Below, piece after piece: positions 1-21,673 of a stretch of 23,803 nucleotides of DNA. This DNA comes from a virus (taxonomy: Duplodnaviria > Heunggongvirae > Uroviricota > Caudoviricetes). Under the pieces are notes generated by a model, which searched no databases, was not told the DNA's origin, and saw only the letters and a list, made by a program, of their open reading frames with translations. The position numbers were made by a program, and so were the translations under genes. Positions within the stretch are counted from its first letter, which is position 1. Every line of letters begins with the position of its first letter. The stretch is taken from positions 1 through 23,803 of the IMG/VR virus record IMGVR_UViG_2563366943_000008; one strand, written 5' to 3'.

Positions 1-1254
1 ATGCTGGAACAAATGGGCATTGCCGCGAAGCAAGCCTCTTATAAATTAGCGCAACTCTCCAGCCGCGAAAAAAATCGTGTGCTGGAAAAAATCGCCGATG
101 AACTGGAAGCACAAAGCGAAATCATCCTCAACGCTAACGCCCAGGATGTTGCTGACGCGCGTGCCAATGGCCTTAGCGAAGCGATGCTTGACCGTCTGGC
201 ACTGACGCCCGCACGGCTGAAAGGCATTGCCGACGATGTGCGCCAGGTGTGCAATCTCGCCGATCCGGTGGGGCGGGTAATCGATGGCGGCGTACTGGAC
301 AGTGGCCTGCGTCTGGAGCGTCGTCGCGTACCGCTGGGGGTTATTGGCGTGATTTATGAAGCGCGCCCGAACGTGACGGTTGATGTCGCTTCGCTGTGCC
401 TGAAAACAGGTAACGCAGTGATCCTGCGCGGCGGCAAAGAAACCTGTCGCACTAACGCTGCAACGGTAGCGGTGATTCAGGACGCCCTGAAATCCTGCGA
501 TTTACCGGCAGGCGCAGTACAGGCGATTGATAATCCTGACCGCGCGCTGGTCAGTGAAATGCTGCGTATGGATAAATACATCGACATGCTGATCCCGCGC
601 GGCGGGGCTGGTTTGCATAAACTGTGCCGCGAACAGTCGACAATCCCGGTGATCACTGGTGGTATAGGCGTATGCCATATTTACGTTGATGAAAGCGCAG
701 AGATCGCTGAAGCATTAAAAGTGATCGTCAACGCGAAAACTCAGCGACCGAGCACATGTAATACGGTAGAAACCTTGCTGGTAAATAAAAACATCGCCGA
801 TAGCTTCCTGTCCGCATTAAGCAAGCAAATGGCGGAAAGCGGCGTGACGTTACACGCAGATGCTGCTGCGCTGGCGCAGTTGCAGACAGGCCCCGCGAAG
901 GTGGTGGCGGTTAAAGCCGAAGAGTATGACGATGAGTTTCTGTCATTAGATTTGAACGTCAAAATCGTCAGCGATCTTGACGATGCCATCGCCCATATTC
1001 GTGAACACGGCACGCAACACTCCGATGCGATCCTGACCCGCGATATGCGCAACGCCCAGCGTTTTGTTAACGAAGTGGATTCGTCCGCTGTTTACGTTAA
1101 CGCCTCTACGCGTTTTACCGACGGCGGCCAGTTTGGTCTGGGAGCGGAAGTGGCGGTAAGCACACAAAAACTCCACGCGCGTGGCCCGATGGGCCTGGAA
1201 GCACTGACCACTTACAAGTGGATCGGCATCGGTGATTACACCATTCGTGCGTAA
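1..1254 (+). CDS. proA: gamma-glutamyl phosphate reductase (glutamate-5-semialdehyde dehydrogenase), complete 417 aa
   Basis: Full-length ORF from ATG at 1 to TAA at 1252-1254. Translation matches enterobacterial ProA from memory along its whole length, with a few substitutions relative to the K-12 sequence as I recall it. High-GC core-genome codon usage. Confidence 0.95.
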
Positions 1255-1368
1255 ATAAAACCGGGTGATGCAAAAGTAGCCATTTGATTCACAAGGCCAT
1301 TGACGCATCGCCCGGTTAGTTTTAACCTTGTCCACCGTGATTCACGTTCGTGAACATGTCCTTTCAGG

Positions 1369-1444
1369 GCCGATATAGCTCAGTTGGTAGAGCAGCGCAT
1401 TCGTAATGCGAAGGTCGTAGGTTCGACTCCTATTATCGGCACCA
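1369..1444 (+). tRNA. thrW: tRNA-Thr (anticodon CGU), 76 nt with encoded CCA
   Basis: Sequence GCCGATATAGCTCAGTTGGTAGAGCAGCGCATTCGTAATGCGAAGGTCGTAGGTTCGACTCCTATTATCGGCACCA folds as a cloverleaf: 7-bp acceptor stem GCCGATA/TATCGGC, D-arm AGCTCAGTTGGTAGAGC, anticodon loop with CGT, T-arm GGTTCGACTCC. Position immediately downstream of proA matches the known thrW locus. Confidence 0.93.
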
Positions 1445-1461
1445 TTCAAACATCTCCCCAA

Positions 1462-1608
1462 GTCTACTAAAGTCTTTCAAAACCCCTTATAATCCGCGTA
1501 TTAAAGCCCCGTTCGTCTTTTGACGTCTACTAAAGTCCCTCAAAATCTACGGTCAGATGGGGGTACTTATGGGGGTATTTGCTGTTCGGTTTAGTGGAGG
1601 TACCCCCA
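1462..1608. promoter_or_regulatory. integrase-proximal repeat cluster (candidate arm-type / operator sites)
   Basis: Two 23-bp direct repeats GTCTACTAAAGTC(T/C)(T/C)TCAAAA at 1462-1484 and 1525-1547 (3 mismatches). TGGGGGTA(C/T) occurs at 1558-1566 and 1570-1578, with an inverted copy GGTACCCCCA at 1599-1608 that overlaps the GGAGG Shine-Dalgarno (1596-1600) of the integrase gene. Confidence 0.45.
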
Positions 1609-1609
1609 A

Positions 1610-2824
1610 GTGAAACTCAATGCCCGTCAAATAGACACAGCCAAGCCAAAAGAGAAGGCTTACAAGCTGGCCGATGGTGGCGGTTTGTATCTCTTGGTAA
1701 AACCTAATGGAGGTAAATACTGGCGACTTAAATATCGTGTAGCTGGTAAAGAGAAGCTATTGGCACTAGGTGTTTATCCTGAGGTTACTCTAGCCGATGC
1801 TCGGGCAAAACGTGAAGATGCGAAAAGAGGTATCGCTGGTGGTATCGATCCGATGGAAGCGAAACGAGAGGAAAAGATTGCCCGGGAAACGCAGTTAAAC
1901 AACACCTTCAAAGATATTGCCCTTGAGTGGCACAGCAGCAAATTAAAAAAATGGTCTGCTGGTTATGCTTCAGACATCCTCGAAGCCTTCAACAAAGATG
2001 TGTTCCCTTACATTGGCAAAAAAACCATCGCCGAAATCAAACCACTTGAACTTCTGAATGTGCTGCGTCGCATCGAGGGGCGCGGTGCTACAGAAAAAGC
2101 CAAAAAAGTGAGGCAACGGTGCGGGGAAGTTTTCCGCTATGCAATAGTCACTGGTCGCGCAGAGTATAACCCTGCACCAGACCTTACTAGCGCGATGCAA
2201 GGCCATGAATCTAATCATTACCCTTTCCTTACAGCCAAAGAATTACCTGATTTTTTCAAGGCATTGTCCAGTTACTCAGGAAGCGCATTGGTTGTTATGG
2301 CGGCTCGTCTACTGATTATCACCGGCTTGCGGACTGGCGAACTACGTGGCGCATTATGGGATGAAATTGATTTCAACAAGGCTATCTGGGAGATACCCGC
2401 TTCACGTATGAAAATGCGGCGGCCTCATATTGTGCCATTGTCTGAGCAGGCTCTTTCGCTTATTGGGAAGATTAGAGAAATAACAGGCAATTACCCTCTT
2501 ATGTTTCCCGGGCGCAATGATCCAAGGAAAACAATGAGCGAGGCCAGCATAAACCAAGTGTTTAAGCGCATTGGCTACGCTGGACGTGTAACTGGTCATG
2601 GGTTCCGGCACACTATGAGTACGATTTTGCATGAGCAGGGCTATAACACTGCGTGGATAGAAACGCAGCTCGCTCACGTTGATAAGAACTCAATTCGTGG
2701 CACATACAACCATGCGCAATATCTGGATGGAAGGCGGGAGATGCTTCAATGGTATGCCGACTATATGGATTCTCTCGAGCATGGCGGAAATGTGGTGCAT
2801 ATGGTGTTTGAAAAACACGCATGA
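1610..2824 (+). CDS. int: tyrosine integrase, P4/IntA-type (site-specific recombinase), 404 aa
   Basis: GTG start at 1610 with GGAGG 10 nt upstream. N-terminal region typical of P4-family integrases (KLADGGGLYLLVKPNGGKYWRLKYR), C-terminal catalytic domain with HGFRHT and HxxR/Y context. Position directly 3' of a tRNA gene is the classic island arrangement. Confidence 0.9.
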   Translation: MKLNARQIDTAKPKEKAYKLADGGGLYLLVKPNGGKYWRLKYRVAGKEKLLALGVYPEVTLADARAKREDAKRGIAGGIDPMEAKREEKIARETQLNNTFKDIALEWHSSKLKKWSAGYASDILEAFNKDVFPYIGKKTIAEIKPLELLNVLRRIEGRGATEKAKKVRQRCGEVFRYAIVTGRAEYNPAPDLTSAMQGHESNHYPFLTAKELPDFFKALSSYSGSALVVMAARLLIITGLRTGELRGALWDEIDFNKAIWEIPASRMKMRRPHIVPLSEQALSLIGKIREITGNYPLMFPGRNDPRKTMSEASINQVFKRIGYAGRVTGHGFRHTMSTILHEQGYNTAWIETQLAHVDKNSIRGTYNHAQYLDGRREMLQWYADYMDSLEHGGNVVHMVFEKHA

Positions 2825-2919
2825 AACAACTGGACAAGTATACAGAGGTTTACTAAAGTATAAGGGAGTAGATTGATAAAAACTCACAGAGGATTGCTAT
2901 TTAACAGTTAGCCATGGAG

Positions 2920-4046: not shown

Positions 4047-4240
4047 CCAACGCCATTCATGGCCATATCAATGATTTTCTGGTGCGTACCGGGTTGAGAA
4101 GCGGTGTAAGTGAACTGCAGTTGCCATGTTTTACGGCAGTGAGAGCAGAGATAGCGCTGATGTCCGGCGGTGCTTTTGCCGTTACGCACCACCCCGTCAG
4201 TAGCTGAACAGGAGGGACAGCTGATAGAAACAGAAGCCAC
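3965..4240 (-). CDS. insA: IS1 InsA (transposition repressor / N-terminal part of transposase)
   Basis: 91-aa [43 protein letters not shown], a zinc-finger plus HTH protein matching IS1 InsA. Confidence 0.9.
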
Positions 4241-4304
4241 TGGAGCACCTCAAAAACACCATCATACACTAAATCAGTAAGTTGGCAGCATCACCGGGTG
4301 ATTA

Positions 4305-6410: not shown

Positions 6411-6429
6411 CTGGTTAGCCATGGATGGC

Positions 6430-7044
6430 TTAGATATCTCTGCTGTCTCCATTAGGAAATAAAAGATAATATGGATTTGCCTTTCTTGCTCTCCTTGCTT
6501 CACCCGGATACCTGTTAGTCAGTAGCTTGCATAATGAGCAGAGAACAACACTCAAGAAAATTCCGAATGAGAAGATCAATATCTCACCAAAAATCAATGG
6601 CGATATTAAATTTTCAGGATTTAATGATAAGTCAATGTTAAAAACATATTGAGCAATACCAGTAAGTATCAATAATATAATCCCTATGGAATACATTGCT
6701 GTTTCCCAAACATCAGACAGTCTATTTTTGAATTGTTCGCTGGAGTAGTAGTTTGTTATAAAGTCAGAAAAATCACTCTCATATGCATCATCTTTAGGTG
6801 ATGTTAGAAATCCTCTGTCTCTCCATACCTTCTCCCAATTAGTCGATTCTTTTTTTAAGGAAAAATAAATATGTATTCCCAAAAGGATAGCCAAAATTGG
6901 TGTTAGCTCTAAAAAATAGAATGTTATGGAATAAATAATACTGCCATGTTCAAACTCATCTGGGACTATCATGTATGCACAAAAATAAATTGAAAAGTAC
7001 ACCATGCAGATAGTTAGCAATTCTTTAGTATCTTTTCTGCTCAC
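6430..7044 (-). CDS. integral membrane protein, 4 predicted TM helices (candidate immunity / abortive-infection membrane protein)
   Basis: 204-aa ORF with GTG start at 7044 and AAGGGGG Shine-Dalgarno upstream. Four long hydrophobic helices with a charged central loop. Very AT-rich compared with the adjacent 701-aa gene. Convergent with that gene, with a 19-bp gap containing a palindrome. Confidence 0.6.
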   Translation of the reverse strand: MSRKDTKELLTICMVYFSIYFCAYMIVPDEFEHGSIIYSITFYFLELTPILAILLGIHIYFSLKKESTNWEKVWRDRGFLTSPKDDAYESDFSDFITNYYSSEQFKNRLSDVWETAMYSIGIILLILTGIAQYVFNIDLSLNPENLISPLIFGEILIFSFGIFLSVVLCSLCKLLTNRYPGEARRARKANPYYLLFPNGDSRDI

Positions 7045-7498
7045 ACCAACCCCCTTTAGCGTTGTTTAGAATGGCAATCATCATATATCCAAGACATGGC
7101 ATTTGGTACATAGCTTGGGTCGGGATTTCAAGTCCGCTCCCAGTTGATGGGGCCGTTACAGTACGCGCATATCCGCTTTATGTGAAACAGGAAGATTTTT
7201 CTGATATCACTGCCACAGCAAAACACCAATTTCGTGACCAGTACGCGCGCGAGGGGTATCAGTTGCAAAATTTTTTGCAACTGCGTCCGACCAGTACGCA
7301 CACGATGGCGGGGGATACCATAAAACTGTTCTCTACATGAGACAGAGTGGTGGTGATGTGTTGATTATCGGCGTATATGCGCACAGGACGCGCTATGACG
7401 ATGTTTTATGCGGGTACACCAATCACATGTATCTGGTGTGATAAATCGCGTTACATGACCTCTCATGTTGTGCTGGTGGTTATCACGACTTTCTGAAT

Positions 7499-7542
7499 CT
7501 GGCCTTTGCCTGATATTTTGCGACAAGTACGCGCGCGTAGCA
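7499..7542. repeat. dispersed repeat with alternating CG core (copy A)
   Basis: CTGGCCTTTGCCTGATATTTTGCGACAAGTACGCGCGCGTAGCA. Partial relatives at 7231-7253 (TTTCGTGACCAGTACGCGCGCGAG) and 7283-7303 (CCGACCAGTACGCACACGA). Confidence 0.6.
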
Positions 7543-7565
7543 TCGACAGCATACACATTGGATAT

Positions 7566-7787
7566 TCATTTTGTGACCAATGCGATAAGTAGCGGGATAA
7601 GAATTGATAAAATCAACAGGCCGATGATCCACTTTTGATTTTCACTGGCCTTATCTCTATTTTCATCAATCTTATCAATAATTCGACGCTCCAATCCGTG
7701 CATATCACCGCGAATGGCAATCATCTCATTGCGAACATCAGGGAAGTGGTTGGCTTGATGTTCAATGTGTGGCGTTCTGCCTTTCAT
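7566..7787 (-). CDS. small protein with N-terminal coiled-coil and single C-terminal TM helix (XhlA/holin-like architecture)
   Basis: 73-aa ORF; C-terminal WIIGLLILSILIPLLIALV is a clear TM segment. Architecture resembles small prophage membrane proteins. Not verified by homology. Confidence 0.4.
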   Translation of the reverse strand: MKGRTPHIEHQANHFPDVRNEMIAIRGDMHGLERRIIDKIDENRDKASENQKWIIGLLILSILIPLLIALVTK

Positions 7788-7866
7788 ATCTGATCCTCAC
7801 CTATCGTCACTACCTGCTGGTGTATAAAGGTATTGGCCCAAGCAACTTTCCAATGGGCACTCATGT

Positions 7867-8322
7867 TTATACGCTGACCTTACAATCAATCACTGCTTTT
7901 AGCTTTTCAGCATTGCTTCCCTGACGCTTCCACGCGCTGTAAATATCTTTATCCCACGCTTTACCAGCTTTTGTTTGATAGCCTGCTTCATTGATCCGTT
8001 CAGCTATCACACGCCCATTATCAAATCCCTGTTGGATGGTATCGGCAATGATCTTTATAACTGCCGTTTCGTTATATGGTTTTGGTGGGATGTTCGGCTT
8101 TCCGGCAATAAGCGACGCAGCGGCTTTTTCCATGCGCTCCACCAGCCCAAGCATTCGTGAATCAATAGACTTTTCCGGCTGCCCCAGCTTCATGCGAATC
8201 GCATCAACAAGCCAGGAGGTTTTATCTCCTCCAGAAGCGAGAACAGACCGATTAAACTCATCCTGCAATTCAGATGGGATGCGGAACGCGACCAGATTAG
8301 ATTTGCTCATTGCAAAGACCAT
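7867..8322 (-). CDS. putative ribbon-helix-helix DNA-binding regulator with C-terminal extension
   Basis: 151-aa ORF. N-terminus NLVAFRIPSELQDEFNRSVLASGGDKTSWLVDAIRMKL fits a beta-strand / helix / helix RHH pattern. A palindromic operator-like sequence lies immediately upstream. An alternative start at 8310 (MSKSN) is possible. Confidence 0.5.
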   Translation of the reverse strand: MVFAMSKSNLVAFRIPSELQDEFNRSVLASGGDKTSWLVDAIRMKLGQPEKSIDSRMLGLVERMEKAAASLIAGKPNIPPKPYNETAVIKIIADTIQQGFDNGRVIAERINEAGYQTKAGKAWDKDIYSAWKRQGSNAEKLKAVIDCKVSV

Positions 8323-8339
8323 ATCAGTGAGTAATATCC

Positions 8340-8545
8340 ATACAGTATACCACTGTATAACACTGTTATACGCTCAAATATCAGCCAGAAAATAACGGAC
8401 CAATCACAAATCTATCGCTGTGTTGTTGGTTCAGAGCTGGGCTGTGTTGGTTCAAAATGAGTTGATGTTGGTTCAATATTTCAGAAAAAACACAATAAAA
8501 ACAACAATCTTTACAAATTGAACCAACTGAACCAACTGAACCAAC
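8340..8545. promoter_or_regulatory. divergent control region with phased iterons
   Basis: Palindrome GTATAAC-ACT-GTTATAC at 8355-8371. Three direct copies of TGTTGGTTCA at 8424, 8445 and 8467 (spacing 21-22 bp). AT-rich spacer. Three tandem inverted copies TGAACCAAC at 8519, 8528 and 8537. TATAAT at 8563-8568 just before the 8582 start. Confidence 0.55.
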
Positions 8546-8581
8546 ACCTTTTTGCTTATCTATATAATCTGAGAGGCAGAA

Positions 8582-8863
8582 ATGATAAGGGACAGGAAAG
8601 CTGAAGAGCTGGAGTCAAAAGGGCTATACCGGAGAGCTGCCGCACGATGGATGGAAGTCATGCTGTTATGCACCGAGGACGATGATCGGGAATGGATAAA
8701 GCGCCGCCGTGAAACGTGTCTGGAGAACGTGAAGCGCCCGCCCGTGAAGGTTGAGGAATTTGGCGACCTGCATAAAGCTGTTACCGAAACGCAACACCGC
8801 ATGGGGATAGCGCAACCGAACGGTAACGCCTTCCGGTTAAATGGCGGCAAGAGGCAAAGGTAG
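8582..8863 (+). CDS. small transcription-activator-like protein (PerC-family-like, tentative)
   Basis: 93-aa ORF MIRDRKAEELESKGLYRRAAARWMEVM. The N-terminal motif resembles PerC/Pch-type prophage regulators as recalled from memory. Directly downstream of the iteron region. Confidence 0.45.
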   Translation: MIRDRKAEELESKGLYRRAAARWMEVMLLCTEDDDREWIKRRRETCLENVKRPPVKVEEFGDLHKAVTETQHRMGIAQPNGNAFRLNGGKRQR

Positions 8864-8888
8864 ACCACCAGAGGGAAATCATCCTCTG

Positions 8889-8934
8889 GCTGGCGGTTTC
8901 TGGTATTTCGGGACAAGTACGCGCGCGCGTAGCA
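8889..8934. repeat. dispersed repeat with alternating CG core (copy B)
   Basis: CTGGCGGTTTCTGGTATTTCGGGACAAGTACGCGCGCGCGTAGCA. Same orientation as copy A, core GACAAGTACGCGCGCG(CG)TAGCA identical apart from one extra CG unit. Confidence 0.6.
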
Positions 8935-9160
8935 CCCAATCGGTGAGGAAATAGCGGCGACCTGAATGGTCAAAATCACAACGCAGCTATCCCCGTAAGC
9001 AGCGCTTAACGGAATAGCAGTAACCTGAATCCAGTGGGGAGGGGGTAGTCAAATCTCTACAGCCCTGACTATCCGGGACTGCCCGCCCCATCGTTTTTTT
9101 ATACCCGCGAAAAATGAAATTTAATCCGGGCGTGTTTCATTCTTCCAGAGGGTATGACGT

Positions 9161-9346
9161 ATGACACCACGCGAAATAGCCTTATTGACCATCGCCAAAC
9201 TTGAGCACGGAGGCCACCAGCTTACACAGGCAGATCAACGGGAGATAGAACGATCAGTTAATGCCGATATAGCCCGGCGCGACAGGTTCCGCGAAATGAT
9301 GCGAGCACCTGCCTACCAGTGGAAGAAGCCAGCGCCGCGCAGGTAG
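9161..9346 (+). CDS. hypothetical small protein (61 aa)
   Basis: ORF with a GAGGG Shine-Dalgarno-like sequence upstream; no recognisable motif. Confidence 0.3.
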   Translation: MTPREIALLTIAKLEHGGHQLTQADQREIERSVNADIARRDRFREMMRAPAYQWKKPAPRR

Positions 9347-9466
9347 ATATGGGATTATTCCACATGTAACTTATGCGTATTAAGCAAATTTCCTTTATTC
9401 ACCTTTACAGAATTGTGAGTACGTCAGTATCGTTATCCTTCCGATTCGCATTTATTCAGGATTTGC

Positions 9467-10009
9467 ATGTACCAGCTAAAGATAACCATCCGAGACAGCA
9501 AACCACCTATATGGCGGCGTGTGCTGGTTCCAGAGCAAATCCCCTTTAGTAAACTTCATGCCGTGATCCAGTTAGCTTTTGGCTGGAATGACGAACACCT
9601 GTATATGTTCGAGAAAGGGCGTAAAGGTGATCCAGGTAGCGAGTATCGCGTATGGGGTGAGGATGAAAGCATGGGTAACGCGGCAATCACGCCACTATGG
9701 GCGGCGCTCCAGAATGAGGGTGACAAGCTGGTTTACACGTATGACTTTGGCGACTGGTGGGATTGCGTCATTGTGCTGGAGAAGCAAACACACGATACGA
9801 GTAATCAGCCCATTAGCTGCCTGCGTGGGAAAGGCACCACCCCGGCGGAAAACTCAGGCGGCTTGCATGGTTACAATGAATTGCTATTACAGGCCAGAGA
9901 GTCTGATAATCCTGAGCAGGCCGAGATCCACAATTTCCTGATGCTGGATATTGAACGCCGGGTTTACGACCTGAGCCGCATCAACGACAGATTGCAGGCT
10001 ATTAACTGA
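9467..10009 (+). CDS. pRiA4b ORF-3-like family protein (tentative)
   Basis: 180-aa ORF containing YTYDFGDWWDCVI, which resembles the YxYDFGDxWxHxI signature I recall for the plasmid pRiA4b ORF-3-like domain. Confidence 0.45.
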   Translation: MYQLKITIRDSKPPIWRRVLVPEQIPFSKLHAVIQLAFGWNDEHLYMFEKGRKGDPGSEYRVWGEDESMGNAAITPLWAALQNEGDKLVYTYDFGDWWDCVIVLEKQTHDTSNQPISCLRGKGTTPAENSGGLHGYNELLLQARESDNPEQAEIHNFLMLDIERRVYDLSRINDRLQAIN

Positions 10010-10361
10010 CCCGCATGTATTCACCTGATATTGCGTTGTCAGCGCCGCCAGTATCGCGCATAACAGCGCACTGACCGGGTAAACCGTAGCGCACGACCGT
10101 TGCGTTAGTATCACCGCCGCGCCGTATCTGGCGCGATTCATACACTGTCACCCGCTCAAGCAGTCCACCAGCAACCATGCTTTCCAGTGTGCGCCGGGTT
10201 GATTCGAGCTGGTGACGCTTATCGAACGACACCATGCCATGAAGCAGGTAGGCCACACCCGACACATCGAACGGCGGCGCACCAATCTCACCAGTCACCC
10301 ATTCGAGGTTATCCGGTTCAAAGTAGCTAAGTATCTCTTTTTTGCGGCTGGTCATTCTCAT
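10002..10361 (-). CDS. hypothetical protein (119 aa)
   Basis: ORF convergent with and overlapping the 3' end of the 9467-10009 gene by 8 bp; AAGGA-like Shine-Dalgarno upstream of the ATG at 10361. Function unknown. Confidence 0.35.
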   Translation of the reverse strand: MRMTSRKKEILSYFEPDNLEWVTGEIGAPPFDVSGVAYLLHGMVSFDKRHQLESTRRTLESMVAGGLLERVTVYESRQIRRGGDTNATVVRYGLPGQCAVMRDTGGADNAISGEYMRVS

Positions 10362-10480
10362 GGCTGGCTGATTCCTTATTGTGGGATAGCACTATCATAC
10401 AATAAGTGGGTTAAAGGGAGAGCGTTACCGCCTGATATGCTGTATGAATAACAACCAAATTTCAGGGGCGGAAAAAGATA

Positions 10481-10501
10481 TGGGGGTACTTTTGGGGGTA
10501 T
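10481..10501. repeat. second copy of the TGGGGGTAC-N3-TGGGGGTAT motif pair
   Basis: TGGGGGTACTTTTGGGGGTAT at 10481-10501 versus TGGGGGTACTTATGGGGGTAT at 1558-1578: same orientation, one mismatch. Confidence 0.7.
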
Positions 10502-10562
10502 CTATAAAAAATGAACAATAAAAAAGGCAACAAAAACAAAGCTTATCGCCTATGTGTATTGT

Positions 10563-10582
10563 TCCTATTATCGCACAATCAA
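10563..10582. other. degenerate direct repeat of the tRNA-Thr 3' end (candidate attR core of module 1)
   Basis: TCCTATTATCG-CAC-AATCAA aligns with tRNA 3' end TCCTATTATCGGCACCATTCAA (1428-1449): 11/11 identical, then gapped similarity. Lies about 60 bp beyond the second TGGGGGTA pair. Confidence 0.45.
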
Positions 10583-11341: not shown

Positions 11342-12153
11342 AAAATCTCCAGAACGCAACAGGACGCATTCTAACGCTATTTTCATTGCTTGGTATAGGG
11401 ATGTATAGGTGATGTGTGTTTAATGCGTCTGTGCGCTTGTTTTGTGCCTTATTTTGCATTTTCATAATGCAGAAGAGAACACGGAAAACCTTAAAATTAA
11501 TTATTGGGGTATTTAAGGGTATTTTCAGGTGATTTAAGGGTATTAAACTTGATTTAATTGATTAAAATATAAACAGATAGTTGTGTATCTTATTGATTTA
11601 TAAGGTTATTTTTAAATAAAGGTAAATAAAAAATAAATAGCCATAAATAGCTATAAATACATCTAAATACCTATATCCCTTCCCTTATGGCTAGATTGCG
11701 AGAGGTGCTTAACGCGATTTTCAGCGCCCCCCGATCTGGAAAATCCAGAATCCCCAAATATCAGCAAGGAATTTTCTTGCGTAATCAACATCGTTTTTAC
11801 CTATTAAATCATTACACAGAAAGCCTTTCTGTAATGTCTCTCACTAAACTTTCACTAAACACGAGAATGATCGGTTTTATGTCGGATCAGATGCTAGAAA
11901 CAGCACCACGTCTCACAAGGACTGTAAGCGATGAAACCAGTGTTTATGCGGGTGCAGGTCAAAATATAGGCCAAAATCAATTTAACATAATAAACGTAAT
12001 ATGCACTAAGGAACACATAGAACGCCTTGAGTTGATGTATCAGGGGAAAAGTGATGGATTTTTTACGTAGGAGCACGAGAGGGCTTCTGTTGACTTTTGT
12101 ATGCTATGAAACATAATTAAAGGTTTTTTTGTTTTTATTGTGTGATGTAGTGG

Positions 12154-13127
12154 ATTACACAGGGGAATAGATTAAATGGTGTTCTGTTTATACAGGTTTA
12201 TTTGTTAGATCAACAATTTGGCATTTCTAAACAGATGTTTGAACGTTGCCAAATGTCTTGACAACACAAGAAAAGGGCTTGCTATGCCACGCATTACACG
12301 AAATAAGGCTGTAAAAACAAAATAAATTTTAAAATTTGCACAAACGAGAAAACTCGTTAAGAAACAAGCAGAACAATTTTTAGCCAACAATTTCTGATGG
12401 TGCTCTGTAGGCCGCACTACACAAGGATTTGCGAAAGTGATGTAAAAGTGAAGAAAGTAAGAATTGCACTTTTAAGCTACTTTTCATTGAATTTTTAGTA
12501 TGGAATTACACAGGAATAAGTTAGGGATATTCTATGATTTACACAGGGAATATAGGGGATTATGGCACACACATAGAAAGGCATTACACAGAGTGAGTGC
12601 TATGTGATGATTGGTAGTAACGGTAGGTCATAGTGAGCTAGGGGGTAGGTCACTGTGAACTACAATAAGACTATTAATAAAACTATATTAGATTATTAAT
12701 TAGATCATAATAATAATATTCTTTATATCTATATATATGATCTTTTGCCTTCCGGCGTTAGCTTCACTCTCTGGCAAGCAGCCTTACTCCGCTACCTTTC
12801 GGGCTTCGTGGCTGGCCCGTTCCGCTCACACCGAAAGCAAAGCGTTACTTTCTTCGTGTAACTTCGTTGGCGGTAACGCCCACGAAGAAATCTATTGCGC
12901 TGTGCGCAGTAAGAGTAATCACCTAACCAATCATACTGATTGCTTATGTGTTAACTCTCTCTAACTCTTAATTACCCTCCTACATTTAATAACTCTGTTA
13001 TTCTCTGTAGTTGTGTAATTACTCGAAGAGAGAGCGGCTAAAGCTCAATTACACTCTGCTTTCCTCGTGTAATTTCACTAAGCCTCAATACAATTTCACT
13101 TCCTACATTCTGTAGTCGTGTAATTGT
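12154..13127. repeat. iteron field flanking an AT-rich tract and GC-rich core (origin-like region)
   Basis: Direct copies of (A/T)TTACACAGG(G/A)AATA at 12154, 12505, 12538 and 12583, plus variants at 12293 and 12417. Inverted copies CGTGTAA(T/C) at 12855, 13012, 13066 and 13117. 17-bp repeat TCTGTAGT(T/C)GTGTAATT at 13004 and 13110. GGTAGGTCA repeats at about 12625 and 12649. Extremely AT-rich tract at about 12660-12745. Confidence 0.5.
12745..12915. ncRNA. candidate structured RNA or single-strand initiation element (strand undetermined)
   Basis: GC-rich patch inside AT-rich DNA. Hairpin CTTCGTTGGCG-GTAA-CGCCCACGAAG (12862-12887; 10 of 11 positions pair, GNRA-type tetraloop). Hairpin CGGGC-N10-GCCCG (12800-12819). 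Long-range complementarity CTTACTCCGC (12783-12792) with GCGCAGTAAG (12904-12913). The overlapping 75-aa ORF has a non-protein-like sequence. Confidence 0.25.
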
Positions 13128-13761
13128 TTTCGGTGGAAAAGCCAGAGGCGACACCGAAAGAGAATTCTGATCTTATTAATCTTATCTATCTTAGTTAATC
13201 TTCTTACTTATCTTACTTACTTTATCTACTTTATTATTAATAATAGCTTTATAAGCTCTCTGTGTAGCTCTCTGACGCAAGAAACAGCATTCAGGAAGGG
13301 AATCACCTTAGAAAAGGTGTTCTTTGCGTCATAATGTGTTTTATGAAGGATTCAGAGGTGTTTCATAACAGGAATGTATAGAGAATACTTTAGGTAATTA
13401 AAAATAAGGGGTCTAAATGCTTCTCTAACAGCATTAAGCAGGGTAGGGAATGGAAACGCATTGCCTACATATAATAAACTCACTACAGGGCTTTACAGGG
13501 CGTTTTATAAAGCGACTCTCTGTTTTATATCTACAATCACCTTTTCATATACCTAACAAATACAAAATAAGCCCCTTAAATAAGCCTCTGGCGAGCTAAA
13601 CAGACATTACATAAGAGAATGTATTGCTTTTATCAAAACTTCGTTAGAACGCGTTTTAGAGCGTTTTAGCGGATAATGAAGAATAGCACTACACAGAAGA
13701 GCACGAATTGCTAAGACAAATTATAACATGCTGAAAAAGATCGATTTTTTCGAAAAGGGTA

Positions 13762-13790
13762 TTGACAAATGTTTCTTTATATGTAATAAT
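13762..13790 (+). promoter_or_regulatory. sigma70-like promoter upstream of the rightward small-gene array
   Basis: TTGACA at 13762-13767, 16-17 bp spacer, TAATAA(T) at 13784-13790. The -35 is embedded in GGGTATTGACA, sharing the GGGTATT motif seen elsewhere in the element. Confidence 0.4.
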
Positions 13791-13903
13791 AGGTATTAGA
13801 GGGACAGAAAAACATTCTTCTCTAAATAATCAAAATCAATGCACTTTGAAGCCGTCAGGCTTGCAAGGTGTTTTATTTCTTTTAACTGAATAAGGAGTTT
13901 TTT

Positions 13904-14092
13904 ATGAAATGGTTTACACCGGAGCACGTCGTAAAGGCATTTAAAAAAGGTGAGCTTACACGCCACCAAATAGTAATGAATCGTAATATGGCAAGGAGTC
14001 GAGGTTATCCAGAGCGAGCAGCTTGCTTCAATGAAGCACTCAAGATTATTGATGAACTAAGAAAAAATGAAAAAGAATCTGAAACAGAGTAA
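13904..14092 (+). CDS. hypothetical small protein (62 aa)
   Basis: ATG preceded by TAAGGAG Shine-Dalgarno at optimal spacing; first gene downstream of the promoter. Confidence 0.5.
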   Translation: MKWFTPEHVVKAFKKGELTRHQIVMNRNMARSRGYPERAACFNEALKIIDELRKNEKESETE

Positions 14093-14111
14093 AGAAGAGA
14101 AGGAGAAAACT

Positions 14112-14282
14112 ATGAGCGAAGCTACAGAAAAGAAAAGACAACCACGCACTTGCTTTCATATTCCTGATGAAGTATTTCAGGTGTTGTTTAAAGAAGCCAG
14201 AAGTAAACGTATCACTGTTACAGATTACATTCTTGATATGTTGAAAAGAGAGGCTGAAACACTCTCAAATAAAAGCAAGTGA
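14112..14282 (+). CDS. putative ribbon-helix-helix (CopG/Arc-like) DNA-binding protein, 56 aa
   Basis: ATG at 14112 with GAAGGAG upstream. RTCFHIPDEVFQVLFKEARSKRITVTDYILDMLK fits strand-helix-helix. The ORF track starts earlier (14067) at an upstream in-frame ATG lacking a Shine-Dalgarno. Confidence 0.5.
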   Translation: MSEATEKKRQPRTCFHIPDEVFQVLFKEARSKRITVTDYILDMLKREAETLSNKSK

Positions 14283-14335
14283 TTTTTATCACCATAGTAG
14301 CGCCATAGAGCGTGATTACATCAAGGAGATTTTTA

Positions 14336-15028
14336 ATGATTAACCAACTAACTTTTACAAAACACTATGACACGTTTGATAATATATCAAAGATTTATTC
14401 TGATAAATTCCCTCAAGGAAAAGATTTAGATCTATTACATATTGTGCTTTATTTTCGATTCCTTAGTTATCAGGAAAACAACCTTAATTGTTATGAAAGT
14501 CACGAAACATTAGCTAAGATTTTTAAGTCTTCACCATCAACAATTAAACGTAAGATAAACGATCTTAAAGAGATGGGATTATTAGAAACATCCCCACATC
14601 CTGATCCGTATATTTCATCTTTGATTTACAATGCTCTCCCTCTCACAGATGCACATATTACTCCCCCAGGAGAATCATCACTCTCTGATCTTTCTGAGGC
14701 AGAAGAAGCACAGGAACAACCTAAAGGCCATAAACAGCCTTCTTTTGATGTTCTTGATGATGATTGGGATACGCCTTTACCCTGGGAGACGGAAGAAACA
14801 CCTGTTTCATCAAGTGAAAAGGTAGCTAATGATAATGAGGAGGATGTGTTAGAGAATTTTGCCTCTCTTATCATCCAGGAGAAACACAAAAGAACAGGAG
14901 GGGCATCATTTATAGAATTTGCAAATTCACTAGCTTGTAGATACGGGCTAAAACGACCAAATGGTATTGAGGCATATTTTTCTAAGCATTACCCAAATGT
15001 ATACGAAGACTTTGATATTCCCTTTTAA
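14336..15028 (+). CDS. putative winged-helix DNA-binding protein with acidic C-terminal tail (replication-initiator / replisome-organiser-like)
   Basis: ATG at 14336 with AAGGAG 9 nt upstream (ORF track starts at 14312). N-terminal segment ETLAKIFKSSPSTIKRKINDLKEMGLLE is a typical HTH. C-terminal third is strongly acidic (DDDWDTPLPWETEETP...EEDVLENF). Confidence 0.45.
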   Translation: MINQLTFTKHYDTFDNISKIYSDKFPQGKDLDLLHIVLYFRFLSYQENNLNCYESHETLAKIFKSSPSTIKRKINDLKEMGLLETSPHPDPYISSLIYNALPLTDAHITPPGESSLSDLSEAEEAQEQPKGHKQPSFDVLDDDWDTPLPWETEETPVSSSEKVANDNEEDVLENFASLIIQEKHKRTGGASFIEFANSLACRYGLKRPNGIEAYFSKHYPNVYEDFDIPF

Positions 15029-15044
15029 AAAGTAAGGAGGACTA

Positions 15045-15323
15045 TTGATACAGTATTTAATAAAAAGCAAAGTAGACAGAATTCAGTGTAACGACACAGG
15101 AAAACGCATCTACGAAACGCTTGCTTACCTCTATAAAGGAAAGCCAACACCGCTAAAATATAGCGATGTGTTACATCGAGCAGGTTGCTCTGAGTCAGGT
15201 TTAAAATTCTGGCTGAAACAGCTATCAAATTTCGGTGTTATTGAAATGAAAGAGCTGTCTTTCTCTACATTTAATCTCAAAAGACTAGATAAAGAAATAG
15301 AATTCATCTATTCCACTCTCTAA
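15045..15323 (+). CDS. small HTH-type DNA-binding protein (92 aa)
   Basis: TTG start with very strong TAAGGAGG Shine-Dalgarno 6 nt upstream. Contains a probable HTH (YSDVLHRAGCSESGLKFWLKQL). Confidence 0.45.
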   Translation: MIQYLIKSKVDRIQCNDTGKRIYETLAYLYKGKPTPLKYSDVLHRAGCSESGLKFWLKQLSNFGVIEMKELSFSTFNLKRLDKEIEFIYSTL

Positions 15324-15455: not shown

Positions 15456-15866
15456 ATGGCAAAAAGAAAAAACAACGTTGTTAAGAAAATCGGTGATTCA
15501 GCTTCTCTTCTAAGTAAACCTAAATCTATTCTAAAACGTAAAGACTTTAAAGAGCTAGTTACGCTCACCAAGCATAATAGCGCCCCTGGCGAATGGAAAA
15601 CAGAGATCATAGAACATTCTCCCTCTGTGCCTTGTGGAGATGAATATATCGCCTTACAAGAAATCTTATCTTCAACACCTGGCGTGTTCTGGAAACCTAA
15701 AAAAAGAAAAGAGTATATCGTTGATAGCTCTGATTTACGCAAATACCAGATTTTAGGATTTGAAGATTATAATCACTACGTTGGTTATCTCGCCACAAAT
15801 GGCCTAAATAATTTAGTTCCTGAATTCCAGATTTTAGATAATGCAGATCACTATGGAGACTTTTAA
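15456..15866 (+). CDS. hypothetical basic protein (136 aa)
   Basis: ATG with AAGGAAAAG upstream. Lys/Arg-rich N-terminus. Stop codon is 1 nt before the start of the next gene. Confidence 0.5.
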   Translation: MAKRKNNVVKKIGDSASLLSKPKSILKRKDFKELVTLTKHNSAPGEWKTEIIEHSPSVPCGDEYIALQEILSSTPGVFWKPKKRKEYIVDSSDLRKYQILGFEDYNHYVGYLATNGLNNLVPEFQILDNADHYGDF

Positions 15867-18459: not shown

Positions 18460-19378
18460 TAAGGGGATTTTAAATGTTAGAAATTAACACTTCTAAAATT
18501 AAGAACACAGTAACATTTAGTGTAGATAAAGACAGCTTGAAAAAAGCGAAAGACTCTATTACAGGCTTAAAGGAATTTGCAGAGAATATCAAGCCAGCTA
18601 AGTTAAGGTTTGATAATGTCACTAAAGGCTATAAGAAAGCACAAAGTGAAGTAGACAAGATTGCTCAACAGAAAGCTAAAGCCGAAAAACAGAATCAAAG
18701 AGTACAAGCTGCCGCAGCAAGAGCACAGGCAAGGCAACAGCAACAAATAGCAGCACGTAAAGAGAAAGCAGAATTAAAACTCCTCGATGTGTCAAGCTCT
18801 ATCAGTGCAATGCACCGTCTCTCTGTAGCTGAACAATACAAAGCTATTGCACAGGCTAGAGAAATTGCCCTCCAATATGAAAGAGGCGCTATTAGTCTGG
18901 CACGTATGAATAGCCAGATGAAACGCTTACAACAGCAACAACGTAAGATTAATGGCAACAGAAAAGCACAATTAGCCCCCGTTAAGGGAGGATCAGGGAA
19001 TTCCGCCACTATGGGCGCTCTGTTATTTGGAGGCGCTACGGCTGCTGCTGGCGTGATGGCTGTTAGTAAAGCGTCGGAGTTTGTTAGTAGCAGTTTCGCT
19101 AACGCAGAGACCCAAGGGGAGCTAATCCAACGTGCAAGGCTTGGCGGTGTAGACGTTAACCAGATGTATAATATTACAGAATGGGCGTATAGAAACGGCG
19201 TTGACTCTATGATGGGTGATCAAGGGGCTAGGAAATACCTGGATCAGATGAAAGATGTTAGGGAACGTGCCGCAAAATCCTACAGTGAAGCTGAATTGGT
19301 GAAAGACAAGAAAACCGGAAAATCTGAATGGAAAGGCGGTGATAATGCTATTAATGAACTTCTAAACTGGATTTGCCC

Positions 19379-20284
19379 CTATATTTCCAGACATCTGTTA
19401 TCACTTAACCCATTACAAGCCCGCTGCCGCAGATATTCCCGTGGCGAGCGATAACCCAGCGCACTATGCGGATGCCATTCGTTATAATGCTCGAACGCCT
19501 CTGCAAGGTTCTTTGCTGCCGTTAACCCGTCTGGTTTGGGCATGATACTGATGTAGTCACGCTTTATCGTTTTCACGAAGCTCTCTGCTATTCCGTTACT
19601 CTCCGGACTCCGCACCGCCGTGTTCTTCGGTTCAAGTCCCAACATCCGGGCGAACTGGCGTGTTTCATTAGCCCGGTAGCATGAACCATTATCCGTCAGC
19701 CACTCCACTGGAGACGACGGAAGATCGTTGCCGAAGCGGCGTTCCACCGCTCCCAGCATGACGTCCTGTACTGTTTCACTGTTGAAGCCGCCGGTAGTGA
19801 CCGCCCAGTGCAGTGCCTCACGATCACTGCAGTCCAGCGCGAACGTGACACGCAGTCTCTCTCCGTTATCACAGCAGAACTCGAACCCGTCAGAGCACCA
19901 TCGCTGATTGCTTTCTTTCACGGCCACTCTGCCTGTATGTGCCCGTTTCGATGGCGGTACAGCAGGTTTTCGCTCAAGCAACAGCGCATTCTGGCGCATG
20001 ATCCGGTAAACACGTTTGGCATTGATCGCAGGCATACCATCAAGTTCTGCCTGTCTGCGAAGCAGCGCCCATACCCGACGATAACCATACGTGGGCAGCT
20101 CTCCGATAACATGGTGTATACGGAGAAGCACATCCGTATCATCAGTGTGACGACTGCGGCGGCCATCCATCCAGTCATCGGTTCGTCTGAGAATGACGTG
20201 CAACTGCGCACGCGACACCCGGAGACAACGGCTGACTAAGCTTACTCCCCATCCCCGGGCAATAAGGGCGCGTGCGCTATCCAC
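19379..20284 (-). CDS. insD: IS2 OrfB (InsD) transposase catalytic (DDE) domain; expressed as OrfAB by frameshift
   Basis: 301-aa ORF overlapping insC; sequence matches IS2 InsD. Confidence 0.88.
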
Positions 20285-20607
20285 TTTTTTGCCCGTCCAT
20301 ATTCAACGGCTTCTTTGAGGAGTTCATTTTCCATCGTTTTCTTGCCGAGCAGGCGCTGGAGTTCTTTAATCTGCTTCATGGCGGCAGCAAGTTCAGAGGC
20401 AGGAACAACCTGTTCTCCGGCGGCGACAGCAGTAAGACTTCCTTCCTGGTATTGCTTACGCCAGAGAAATAACTGGCTGGCTGCTACACCATGTTGCCGG
20501 GCAACGAGGGAGACCGTCATCCCCGGTTCAAAGCTCTGCTGAACAATTGCGATCTTTTCCTGTGTGGTACGCCGTCTGCGTTTCTCCGGTCCTAAGACAT
20601 CAATCAT
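20242..20607 (-). CDS. insC: IS2 OrfA (InsC) transposase N-terminal / regulatory protein
   Basis: 121-aa product [53 protein letters not shown] matches IS2 InsC (HTH). Confidence 0.9.
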
Positions 20608-21673
20608 CTGCTCTCCAATGACTAGTCTAAAAACTAGTATTAAGACTATCACTTAAATAAGTGATACTGGTTGTCTGGAGATTCAGGGGGCCAGTCTATA
20701 AACATCGGTGTTATTAACAAAAGCGACCTTAAAAAATTTGCTGATAATCCGGCTGGATTAATTTCTAAGGCTGTTAATGGAATGATGAAAAAAGGGTTTT
20801 CAGACTCCCAAATTGGACAACGTTTAGAAGACCTGGGCGATGATTTGATGCTTACGTCAAAATATTGGCAACGTTCCGTTAAAGATGTACAAGAAAGTAT
20901 TAATCAGCAAAAAGCCTCTGGAAAATGGCTAACAGAAACACAGCAAGACTCTATTGTTAAATTCAGAGAACTAAACAGACAGCTTTCACAGCTTTCTGAT
21001 GCAAGACAAGTAGCATTCGTAGACGGCTTTATGAAATCTCTCGATCCAAAAGTAACGGAAGAGTTTATGAAAAACCTTTCTAATCTCACTCCGTATTTTA
21101 CGAAGCTGGGAGAAGCTACAGGAAGTCTCTTTGAAGCTATTATGAAGATTGTAAACTGGTTTAATCGTAATGATGATAAGACAGATGCTATTCAGAAAAA
21201 TATGGGTGATGCACCGCCATTAAGCAATGAAGGGATGAAACAGAATCTTTCTAATCTCGTTCCTAATCAATATAAAGGCGCTGGCACTGCAACAACTACA
21301 CCTGATAATAGTCATTCTCTCTTTAACACAATTAAGGGATTGCTTTTCGATGATAATTCTTCTGTGTCAGATGTAAAAATGTCAGTCAATGAAGCACCGA
21401 TAACCAATCTCAAACAGGGTGCTTTAAATAATCTTGCAATGACAACTCCAGCTTATAATTTATCTCCTGTGTTTAATCTGAATCCTACATTTGAAGTGGT
21501 AACAGAAGTGCCGCTAACTATCGAATCAGACACCGGACGATTGAGCGATTATGTGGATTTTACAGCGAGAGCAAGTCGGGATAGCTTCTTGAAATCATTA
21601 ACATTAACCAGCTTATCAGGACAATCCAACGGCGGGTAATTCCCGCCATAACATTACAAGGAAAATTATTATT

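Follow-up and report, generated by a model that had tools for sequence, protein, structure and literature searches.

A predicted replication and regulation cassette in an Escherichia coli thrW island, with an SSB-like tip on its candidate initiator

Genes and features of the island

The window, which is the whole stretch of 23,803 nucleotides analysed here, carries an integrative island of about 12.5 kb at the thrW tRNA gene of Escherichia coli (E. coli). The coordinates of the features are given in Table 1. Homology to the simple island of strain 13E0780 begins at 10563-10576, right after the tRNA-Thr of that strain, and an integrase gene forms the right end. Among the island proteins, scans with Pfam, PHROG and NCBIfam named only an integrase, a resolvase, a capsid protein E, a tape-measure-like protein and a Dit-like protein. 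The same scans revealed no replication enzyme, and the earlier note on this DNA was right that a primase-helicase is absent. Neither a helicase nor a loader domain is encoded by p92, p136 or p112, which follow p230. About 12% of complete E. coli genomes carry the island. The copy in the window may be partly decayed, and possibly defective, because it has two iterons, compared with four or five in its relatives, a tape-measure-like gene interrupted by IS2, and, at the position of the relatives' resolvase, a different ORF. A 3.5-kb query showed no IS insertion in strain DSM 103263.

Table 1 Features of the thrW island, in window coordinates or, for parts of p230, in amino acid residues.
Feature	Position	Strand	Description
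Left boundary	10563..10576	+	thrW att repeat; degenerate repeat of thrW 3' end, TCCTATTATCGCAC
GTGTAAY motifs	11811..13124	.	scattered; five on minus strand left of origin, four on plus and one on minus strand right of it
Iterons	12622..12662	+	two 22-bp copies, GGTAGGTCAnnGTGAnCTAGGG; four or five copies in close relatives
AT-rich stretch	12663..12745	.	about 80 bp with GATC sites, between iterons and structured element; candidate unwinding region
Structured element	12771..12909	+	conserved nucleic-acid element; core helices, three-way junction with GNRA-type loop, terminal hairpin
Cassette promoter	13762..13790	+	sigma-70-type; TTGACA, 17 nt, extended -10 TG-TAATAAT; score 11/12
p62	13904..14092	+	62-aa orphan protein; predicted three-helix bundle
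p56	14112..14282	+	56 aa, ribbon-helix-helix-like; likely operon repressor; CopG-like position just before rep
p230	14336..15028	+	candidate Rep initiator, 230 aa; winged-helix N-domain aa 10-110
p230 junction motif	aa 100-111		ALPLTDAHITPP
p230 linker	aa 112-167		disordered and acidic
p230 C-domain	aa 168-225		four helices, followed by SSB-Ct-like terminus
p230 C-terminal motif	15005..15025	+	EDFDIPF, like SSB C-terminal tip DDDIPF; kept family-wide
p92	15045..15323	+	92-aa winged helix; TTG start; first gene of downstream block
Integrase	22469-23803		right end of island

The cassette is composed of the genes p62, p56, p230 and p92. These four CDS are also annotated by PGAP in the chromosome of E. 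coli AF3, where they are 100% identical, and the RefSeq calls match. Shine-Dalgarno sites precede each start codon: AAGGAG lies 6 nt 5' of the ATG of p62 (13904), GGAG lies 5' of the ATG of p56 (14112), AAGGAG lies 7 nt 5' of the ATG of p230 (14336), and AAGGAGG lies 5 nt 5' of the TTG of p92 (15045). Coordinates, Shine-Dalgarno sites and database calls agree, and the four small ORFs proposed in the earlier note are real. The TTGACA promoter that it placed upstream of the cassette is borne out as well. This site is the top-scoring promoter-like site of the region, and its -35 and -10 hexamers are identical in 17 of 17 aligned relatives. Its spacer and the 5' UTR occur among these relatives in two forms, each of which travels with a p62 allele. 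All four genes would be transcribed from this one promoter.

The four-gene order is kept in Escherichia, Enterobacter, Serratia, Buttiauxella and metagenomes, with protein identities of 25-60%. In about 50 independent loci the order p62-p56-p230-p92-p136 is found at a fixed offset from the conserved element of the origin. Since identities in these loci go down to 25-40%, the arrangement is more than chance.

Single-sequence searches of the PDB with each of the four cassette proteins gave nothing significant. The proposal that all four bind DNA does not hold for p62, a plain three-helix bundle in which neither a helix-turn-helix nor any other DNA-binding fold was found, and whose structural neighbours are uninformative. 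Profile matches of p62 to designed PPR proteins were rejected as repeat artefacts, since no single stretch passes. The description of p56 as a ribbon-helix-helix (RHH) protein has some support from profile comparison, in which its family aligned by hhalign to Arc/Mnt/CopG/NikR/ParD with 85.6% probability and with the strand and both helices in register, but none of seven members of the family gave a Pfam match. PHROG gave a weak Arc-like match (E 0.013), and profile matches to designed helical proteins were uninformative. E. coli relatives have p56 in two allelic forms that share 43% identity, and some of the relatives have no p56 at all. No difference in the promoter region of the 17 aligned relatives correlates with the p56 alleles, and an operator could not be assigned in this way. 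Judged from its fold and position, p56 would be an RHH-type repressor ahead of rep, like CopG.

The p92 family profile matched SmtB (E 8e-4), ArsR (1e-3), CzrA (about 1e-3) and also PefI in the PDB, and it aligned by hhalign to the N-domain of the p230 family with 84.7% probability. By these profile comparisons, p92 is a winged helix that resembles the Rep N-domain, and its likeness to ArsR/SmtB is at the fold level only. It could be described as a stand-alone Rep-type winged helix that would bind some conserved site. The gene is missing from three minimal islands.

A different function that could be considered is a partition or stability module, made of an RHH protein of the ParG/omega type and a centromere-binding winged helix, or a toxin-antitoxin pair p62-p56. 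RHH proteins are known as ParG/omega centromere binders and as antitoxins, and p56 has a weak PDB match to antitoxin 7e4j (E 0.5-0.7). We regard this as very improbable. The island encodes no ParA- or ParM-type ATPase, there is no ParB-like partner, and no centromere-like array is tied to the cassette genes, so that the suggestion of a partition module in the earlier note has to be dropped. Several otherwise intact relatives keep p62 without p56, which is unlike an antitoxin, and p62 matches no toxin family; PADLOC found no defence system.

The p230 protein and the origin region

The earlier note could not name a family for these proteins with confidence. However, p230 matches Pfam HTH_36 (PF13730) with an E-value of 1.1e-5 over residues 38-83 (25.6 bits, with a cut-off of 25), and it matches PHROG families of replication initiators, with an E-value of 9.7e-10 for PHROG 270. 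The N-domain was modelled by AF2 with a pLDDT above 90. Its predicted fold is like that of the N-domains of plasmid RepA and DnaD, and the viral structural neighbours of p230 are named replication initiator or replisome organizer. The Pfam scan, taken to an E-value of 1, gave no match to RepA_N. The model comprises the winged helix and a helical domain only; an OB fold is absent from it, and Pfam gave no SSB match. The linker has 16 acidic residues (D/E) versus 3 basic residues (K/R) and a pLDDT below 50. The winged helix described earlier is thus confirmed, but the acidic tail described with it is an internal linker, and the true C-terminus is the short conserved motif EDFDIPF. The family is tiny, with 41 representatives in a search of representative sequences; among the matches listed in a larger homologue search there were only near-identical E. 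coli sequences. The NCBI label for p230 is transcriptional regulator only.

The origin is located 1.2-1.7 kb upstream of p230, and it comprises the iterons, the AT-rich stretch and then the structured element. The earlier placement of the cassette downstream of an origin-like iteron region is correct as to the origin, but the 22-bp iterons sit at 12622-12662 and are not directly upstream of the cassette. Strain 13E0780 has five iteron copies with a 22-bp period. The same order of iterons, AT-rich stretch and conserved element is found in Serratia and Enterobacter loci. No DnaA boxes were found near the origin. The AT-rich stretch beside the iterons would be the part that is opened.

Identity among p230 alleles can be as low as 25% and as high as 100%, whereas it exceeds 90% for p62, p92 and p136. 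The N-domains of the family form nine clusters, each of which has its own iteron type in 37 of 38 loci; in the remaining locus a cluster-6 Rep is paired with iterons of the window type. The N- and C-domains of Rep recombine at the junction ALPLTDAHxxPP. In these natural domain swaps the iteron type follows the N-domain type, which ties the N-domain to the iterons. From this co-variation, the winged-helix N-domain of p230 would recognise the 22-bp iterons located about 1.7 kb upstream, and p230 is very likely an iteron-specific Rep initiator. If this is correct, the nine natural pairs of N-domain and iteron represent a ready-made specificity code for winged-helix/DNA recognition.

It could be argued that p230 and its neighbours are mere transcription factors of a cryptic prophage remnant, in which the repeats are operators or junk and nothing is replicated. 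This is improbable in our judgement. The top family matches of p230 are replication initiators, and 22-bp tandem iterons with an AT-rich block at a distance of 1.7 kb from the promoter are not the layout of operators. Moreover, the gene order kept across genera at 25-40% protein identity points to a working unit, and the phage nucleases that carry copies of the N-domain, described below, make sense if an origin is the target. The matches to HTH_36 and to the PHROG initiators, the co-variation with the iterons and the iteron/AT-rich layout support what the earlier note suggested, a regulation or replication-initiation module adjoining an origin. We conclude, with a probability of roughly 0.7, that the cassette is the replication and regulation module of the thrW island.

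The core of the structured element is about 94% identical across genera, and a covariance model found the element in 32 of 33 sources. Pairing is kept at 98.9%, versus 86.6% in shuffles; 23 of 38 pairs are changed on both sides, and slid controls gave 24-46%. The element has no match in Rfam and no relatives in plasmid or phage collections. A cos site shared with a sequenced phage was considered and rejected, as the phage collection gave no match at that sensitivity. The probable role of the element in this replicon is that of a primer RNA, a regulatory RNA or a single-strand priming signal. In addition, the motif GTGTAAY occurs 17 times in the window, where 4.8 are expected, and 10 of these copies lie within 1.3 kb at 11811-13124. 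This arrangement is shared by all E. coli-type relatives, regardless of the p230, p56 or p62 allele. The motifs track the whole E. coli-type non-coding region, so that no binder could be assigned to them.

The C-terminal tip of p230 and the link to phages

All full-length members of the p230 family end in acidic residues followed by [IL]PF, with variants such as EDFDIPF, STIPF and FDPIPF. The family displays the features of the SSB C-terminal tip (SSB-Ct): a free C-terminal Phe, Pro at position -2, Ile or Leu at position -3, and acidic residues before them. Natural SSB tails end in -DIPF or -DLPF, and both endings are present in the p230 family. One natural variant keeps the tail without the helical C-domain. 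Whichever N-domain type a member has, and in at least four C-domain types, the [D/E]-rich [IL]PF end is retained, which indicates that the tail is under selection. In two loci the place of p230 is taken by a non-homologous initiator that lacks the IPF tail, so the tail is not obligatory for such replicons. A literature search of limited coverage turned up no initiator described as having an SSB-Ct tail.

The SSB-Ct, DDDIPF, recruits at least 17 partners (PMC5872125, PMC7145534). By analogy, the acidic linker and the EDFDIPF end of p230 would bring in SSB-docking proteins, such as PriA, DnaG, the chi subunit of the clamp loader, or their phage equivalents, and through this recruitment the island would be able to replicate although it encodes no primase or helicase. 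Judging from the motif, recruitment of replication proteins by the SSB-like tip is possible, at somewhat less than even odds. If it is correct, an SSB-type recruitment tip tethered to origin DNA lets a mobile element start replication with neither a helicase nor a primase of its own. It is also conceivable, though rather unlikely, that p230 is an initiator whose IPF end docks elsewhere, on a helicase or loader of the helper phage, on p92 or p136, or on a protease adaptor. The island seems tied to phages that have their own replication genes, the spacing of the motif in EDFDIPF, STIPF and FDPIPF departs from DDDIPF, and the RepA of the Vibrio satellite PLE is thought to use phage machinery (PMC8263062). 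Against such a dock, all the defining features of the SSB-Ct are present in p230 at the end of a disordered acidic linker, and the family has the two endings of natural SSB proteins.

The earlier note mentions neither the SSB-like terminus nor the satellite context nor the link to virulent coliphages. The link to phages comes from the tail proteins of the island. Proteins of Justusliebigvirus and Phapecoctavirus share 58-61% identity with the 237-aa tail protein of the island and 31-37% with its tape-measure-like protein. These homologues belong to the Stephanstirmvirinae, which are large virulent myophages, and the island is likely to be a satellite of this group. No satellites of Stephanstirmvirinae were found in a literature search of limited coverage.

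Three phages, inny (inny_184), muut (muut_154) and Mt1B1_P17 (QNJ49226), have chimeric genes in which a Rep N-domain of cluster 7, 2 or 6 is joined to a cluster-1 Rep N-domain and to a MUG113/T5orf172 nuclease domain. The HTH_36 domains of these chimeras are 82-91% identical to the satellite Rep clusters, and the chimeras have no IPF tail. Phages arall, Eryne and alia lack such a chimera. The nuclease domain is a marginal match, with an E-value of 2e-4 for MUG113, exactly at the Pfam cut-off, and 0.025 for T5orf172; putative homing endonucleases of T5-like phages are relatives of the C-domain. In the phage ICP1, Odn uses a domain like the RepA of PLE to cut the PLE origin (Barth et al., eLife 2021, PMC8263062). 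The phage chimeras are, likewise, predicted to be Odn-like origin-directed nucleases of GIY-YIG type, and virulent coliphages would thus appear to have copied the DNA-binding domain of Rep into putative nuclease genes.

These elements could be joined into one scheme. The SSB tip at the origin would hijack the network of SSB interactions in the host or the phage, the phages would answer with dual-specificity nucleases made from captured Rep DNA-binding domains, and the pressure of these nucleases would drive the shuffling of Rep N-domains and iterons. The cluster-0 Rep of the window has been captured by no sequenced phage and could represent an escape allele. The whole scheme, with undescribed satellites of Stephanstirmvirinae, an origin hijacked through an SSB tip, an Odn-like answer by phages and a new structured RNA, is tentative, and we judge it a little less probable than the recruitment step taken by itself. 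If it is true, the island is a tractable E. coli counterpart of the Vibrio PLE/ICP1/Odn conflict, for which the candidate helper and counter-attacking phages are sequenced; they were isolated on K-12. Such islands could also alter the efficacy of phi92-like and phAPEC8-like phages in phage therapy.

Comparison with known systems

The small RHH gene immediately 5' of rep in one operon is similar to the CopG-RepB operon of the pMV158 type, which suggests autoregulation of rep. However, RepB is a rolling-circle nuclease, which p230 is not, and the cassette has an additional gene, p62, before p56.

Lambda O, SPP1 G38P and the DnaD-like organizers (PHROGs 270, 428, 678 and 391) have, like p230, an N-terminal winged helix for iterons near an AT-rich region. 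The C-terminal part of the lambda O type recruits the helicase-loading machinery, while that of p230 consists of a short helical domain and the SSB-like tip. Lambda O has its origin within the initiator gene, whereas here the iterons are found 1.7 kb upstream, and p230 is not followed by a P-, DnaC- or DnaB-like partner gene. The tail of bacterial SSB also has a disordered acidic linker, an acidic stretch, [IL]-P-F and a free carboxyl end. The tip of p230, in contrast, is on a protein predicted to bind double-strand DNA sequence-specifically, and a folded domain of 58 aa separates the linker from the tip.

P4-like satellites, PICI and cf-PICI are similar to the island in being small and integrative at a tRNA gene, with an integrase, a replication module and few virion-related genes. 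The island lacks the alpha primase-helicase, sid, delta and psu of P4, the AlpA and pri-rep of PICI, and the portal, protease and terminase set of cf-PICI. It has, instead, a lambda-E-type capsid protein and tape-measure-like and Dit-like proteins related to those of virulent myophages.

The closest parallels are with PLE of Vibrio cholerae. To our knowledge, an SSB-tip-like terminus is undescribed for PLE RepA, and p230 carries one. PLE RepA is, as p230 is predicted to be, a satellite initiator with a winged-helix N-domain for iterons in a non-coding origin (PMC8263062). Neither PLE nor the thrW island has its own primase or helicase, and among the islands of each kind the replication modules and iterons have diversified. 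In contrast to PLE RepA, p230 has no Pfam RepA_N match and is classed as HTH_36. The hosts are E. coli and its relatives, and the candidate helpers are Stephanstirmvirinae. In both systems a chimera of a Rep-like DNA-binding domain and a nuclease of the GIY-YIG superfamily (T5orf172-type) is found in a virulent helper phage, with one Rep domain at 42% identity in Odn and two tandem Rep domains at 82-91% in the chimeras of the coliphages.

Tandem islands after thrW

The module formed by the four-gene cassette (p62, p56, p230 and p92, named for their lengths in amino acids) and the origin upstream of it is probably an iteron-Rep replicon of a phage satellite, a variant of that known kind. Two of its features are unusual: the terminus of the initiator, which resembles the SSB tip, and the capture of the initiator's DNA-binding domains by virulent coliphages. 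The window matches the chromosome of E. coli isolate AF3 at 100% identity and has two islands inserted after thrW, which are in tandem since a degenerate thrW repeat closes the first. In the first island, the gene for a DNA-ejection protein of the P22-gp16 family (4305-6410) stands alone. The second island, with a low G+C content of 34-38%, is found by itself immediately after thrW in strain 13E0780. There, its left part is composed of a small ORF and a resolvase gene, 2 kb of gene-free DNA, the cassette and four small ORFs, and its right part encodes a capsid protein, a 66-aa ORF, a tape-measure-like protein, a Dit-like protein and an integrase. Of 5426 complete E. coli genomes, 669 carry part or all of a 3.5-kb stretch around the cassette, and 286 carry at least 80% of it.

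The tape-measure-like gene, intact (609 aa) in 13E0780, is split in the window (18474-21639) by IS2 (transposase 19379-20607). Most relatives have a serine recombinase (resolvase/invertase) gene upstream of the origin, for example at 14325-14864 of locus L002; an unrelated 127-aa ORF (11687-12070) takes this position in the window, as it does in locus L008. With the IS2 insertion, the different ORF in the resolvase slot and two iterons, the window's own copy is probably impaired. Minimal islands (L003, L004 and L010) occur in Enterobacter and Serratia. These consist of an integrase, cargo that includes a putative DNA methyltransferase, a resolvase, the origin, small genes (p62-like only in L003 and L004, p56-like only in L010) and the initiator, Rep. 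They stop directly after Rep, and the neighbouring genes, identified by eye only, are thiamine-biosynthesis-like. Because these three islands have no capsid or tail genes, the unit of origin and Rep is the conserved core.

Features of the window, of related islands and of phage loci
Feature	Position	Strand	Remarks
proA and tRNA-Thr (thrW)	thrW 1369-1444		start of window, before the two tandem islands
First island	1445-10562 (about)		integrase 1610-2824, IS1, P22-gp16-family gene, PerC, pRiA4b-ORF3 protein
PerC gene	8582-8863		first island
Degenerate copy of thrW 3' end, TCCTATTATCGCAC	10563-10576		closes first island, opens second
Two iterons	12622-12662		window
Structured RNA or ssDNA element	12771-12909	+	conserved; beside origin
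intF-like integrase	22469-23803		right end of second island
Major capsid protein, lambda-E-type			13E0780 island; PF03864
Tape-measure-like protein, 609 aa			13E0780 island; phrog_16051, E 9e-54
Dit-like tail protein			13E0780 island; PF21821
p230 winged-helix domain	residues 10-110		AF2, confident
p230 disordered segment	residues 112-167		AF2; strongly acidic, 16 D/E vs 3 K/R
p230 four-helix domain	residues 168-225		AF2, confident
p230 replacement	L034 +1103..1883, L048 +1161..1983 from core		259-273 aa; winged helix, acidic proline-rich linker
Phage inny gene 184	L072 3914-5017		chimeric, annotated hypothetical
muut_154	L074 328-1326		chimeric, annotated hypothetical
Mt1B1_P17 QNJ49226	L073 514-1500		chimeric, annotated hypothetical

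The origin and its probable initiator

The gene-free 2.5 kb upstream of the cassette holds true 22-bp tandem iterons GGTAGGTCAnnGTGAnCTAGGG, two in the window and four or five in 13E0780 and most relatives. After them come about 80 bp of AT-rich DNA containing GATC sites and then a G+C-rich block, which is about 94% identical between genera. This block was used as a search pattern and yielded 7 loci from the viral collection and 44 metagenome loci, in which the spacing between block and cassette is constant. The identity of p230 ranges from 25 to 100% among the loci, whereas it exceeds 90% for p62, p92 and p136, the product of the next gene downstream. The N-terminal domains of Rep form nine clusters, and the N- and C-domains have recombined at a junction motif, ALPLTDAHxxPP, that is conserved in the family alignment. 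In 37 of 38 loci, the N-domain cluster is paired with its own repeat type ahead of the AT-rich stretch; the sole exception is L030. The collected loci are a natural swap experiment, and this co-variation in sequence is the strongest evidence available short of experiment that the N-domain would read the iterons, which would make p230 the Rep of this origin. GTGTAAY motifs are enriched in the window (17 compared with 4.8 expected); ten of them are in 11811-13124, where they face away from the origin on either side, a pattern conserved in all E. coli-type relatives whatever the Rep allele. Between the origin and the cassette promoter there is a pyrimidine-rich run of 9- and 13-nt repeats resembling CTTATCTTA (13170-13237).

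The p230 family is very small, with 41 representatives among 1.84 billion proteins. p230 matches Pfam HTH_36 and, among PHROGs, families labelled replication initiation protein, DnaD-like loader and O-like initiator (best E 1e-9). Its domains were taken from an AF2 model with a pLDDT of 80.6. The C-terminus of essentially every full-length member of the alignment consists of acidic residues and then [IL]PF (EDFDIPF in the window; EDLPF, DPIPF and STIPF among the variants elsewhere). Proteins of every N-domain cluster retain this terminus, as do those with any of at least four unrelated types of C-domain, and even a natural variant without the helical C-domain. The tip of E. coli SSB, DDDIPF, is carried on a disordered linker and recruits 17 or more partners, PriA and DnaG among them (PMC5872125, PMC7145534). 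p230 thus resembles SSB in its putative SSB-style recruitment arm, here joined to a probable sequence-specific origin binder. The island has no gene for a primase, helicase or loader, and we therefore propose that the p230 tip would recruit replication proteins that interact with SSB to the origin once it is opened. This idea is limited by loci L034 and L048, in which a non-homologous initiator without the IPF tail occupies the p230 slot; in L048, the one of the two with enough upstream sequence to show them, it is accompanied by its own iterons, GGTGTCAATTTGGCAC. A further limit is that no report of an initiator with an SSB-Ct-like tail turned up in the literature searched.

The cassette genes and the structured element

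The ORFs of the earlier note, all four with the Shine-Dalgarno sites and one with the TTG start described there, were confirmed, and the same four genes are in the PGAP calls. The proposed TTGACA promoter (13762-13790) is the site closest to consensus in the region, and relatives carry it unchanged. The order p62-p56-p230-p92-p136 is found again in Enterobacter, in Buttiauxella, in a second lineage of E. coli and in dozens of contigs from metagenomes; as it is kept at protein identities down to 25-40%, the cassette comprises real genes under selection. The core of the earlier reading, a module of replication and regulation, was right; a role in partition finds no support, and the description of four DNA-binding proteins was overstated. 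The p56 family is in register with Arc, Mnt, CopG, NikR and ParD (hhalign 85.6%), and p56 has a weak Arc-like PHROG match and no Pfam match. Its gene sits immediately ahead of rep, as in CopG-RepB. It has two alleles and is missing from some relatives, and comparison with relatives gave no assignable operator. p92 has a winged-helix profile, with SmtB and ArsR matched at E about 1e-3, and is similar to the Rep N-domain (84.7%). Kept whatever the Rep allele and absent from the minimal islands, p92 is probably a functional part of the block that follows it.

Between the promoter and p62, the 5' UTR contains a small hairpin, AAGCC-GTCA-GGCTT, and then a T-rich run (13846-13880), which together may be an attenuator; relatives retain the hairpin, and a variant linked to the second p62 allele has compensating differences in it. 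The last residues of p136 (136 aa, 15456-15866) form an acidic stretch that finishes with Phe, ...DNADHYGDF, while some relatives have instead an internal DFDELF or DFDILF a few residues short of the end. It may be a further short motif for docking.

The conserved block beside the origin is more than a binding site. Its structure was built by hand, with core helices, a small hairpin, a three-way junction, a further hairpin and a terminal GCGC hairpin, and was turned into a covariance model, whose matches gave the alignment. The model locates the element in 32 of 33 sources, two of them without the exact core pattern. In this alignment, which is itself fitted to the model, standard pairs fill 98.9% of cells (86.6% in shuffles; 24-46% with partners slid), 23 of 38 pairs are changed on both sides (11.0 ± 1.6 in shuffles), as are 121 cells (30.7 ± 5.4 in shuffles). 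Compensatory changes are strong across 27 distinct sequences. The second hairpin of the three-way junction has GNRA-type loops, and these loops, with a nearly invariant U·G pair, favour the + strand. No Rfam family corresponds to the element, and the plasmid and phage collections gave no match to it. It may be an RNA (a primer, a regulator or a P4-CI-like immunity RNA) or a single-strand priming signal.

Chimeric genes of virulent myophages and comparison with ICP1 Odn

The Dit-like protein of the island shares 58-61% identity with a tail protein of Justusliebigvirus and Phapecoctavirus, virulent E. coli myophages of about 146 kb, and the tape-measure-like protein is 31-37% identical to their counterparts. 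The sole phage match of p230 is gene 184 of phage inny. Its first winged helix and linker are 82% identical over 178 residues to Rep cluster 7, its second winged helix is 91% identical to cluster 1, and its C-terminal domain is MUG113/T5orf172 (GIY-YIG superfamily), related to putative homing endonucleases of T5-like phages. The genes of muut and Mt1B1_P17 have the same design, but with cluster 2 or cluster 6 first, and BI-EHEC encodes a related gene. inny, muut and Mt1B1_P17 are virulent phages of the Stephanstirmvirinae, and the two Rep-type winged helices of their chimeras are 82-91% identical to island Reps. None of the phage chimeras examined has the IPF tail or the cluster-0 domain of the window's Rep. 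No paper linking satellites to Stephanstirmvirinae was found in the literature searched.

In joining a Rep-type DNA-binding domain to a nuclease domain, the chimeras have the architecture of Odn, the origin-cutting nuclease of phage ICP1, and those of inny, muut and Mt1B1_P17 are candidate origin-directed nucleases of this kind. Odn borrowed its DNA-binding domain from RepA of PLE, the Vibrio cholerae satellite, cuts the PLE origin at the iterons, and is thought to select for diversified PLE replication modules (PMC8263062). By analogy with this system, the thrW islands are probably satellites, or at least antagonists, of Stephanstirmvirinae, and phage nucleases would be driving the diversification of their Rep N-domains and iterons.
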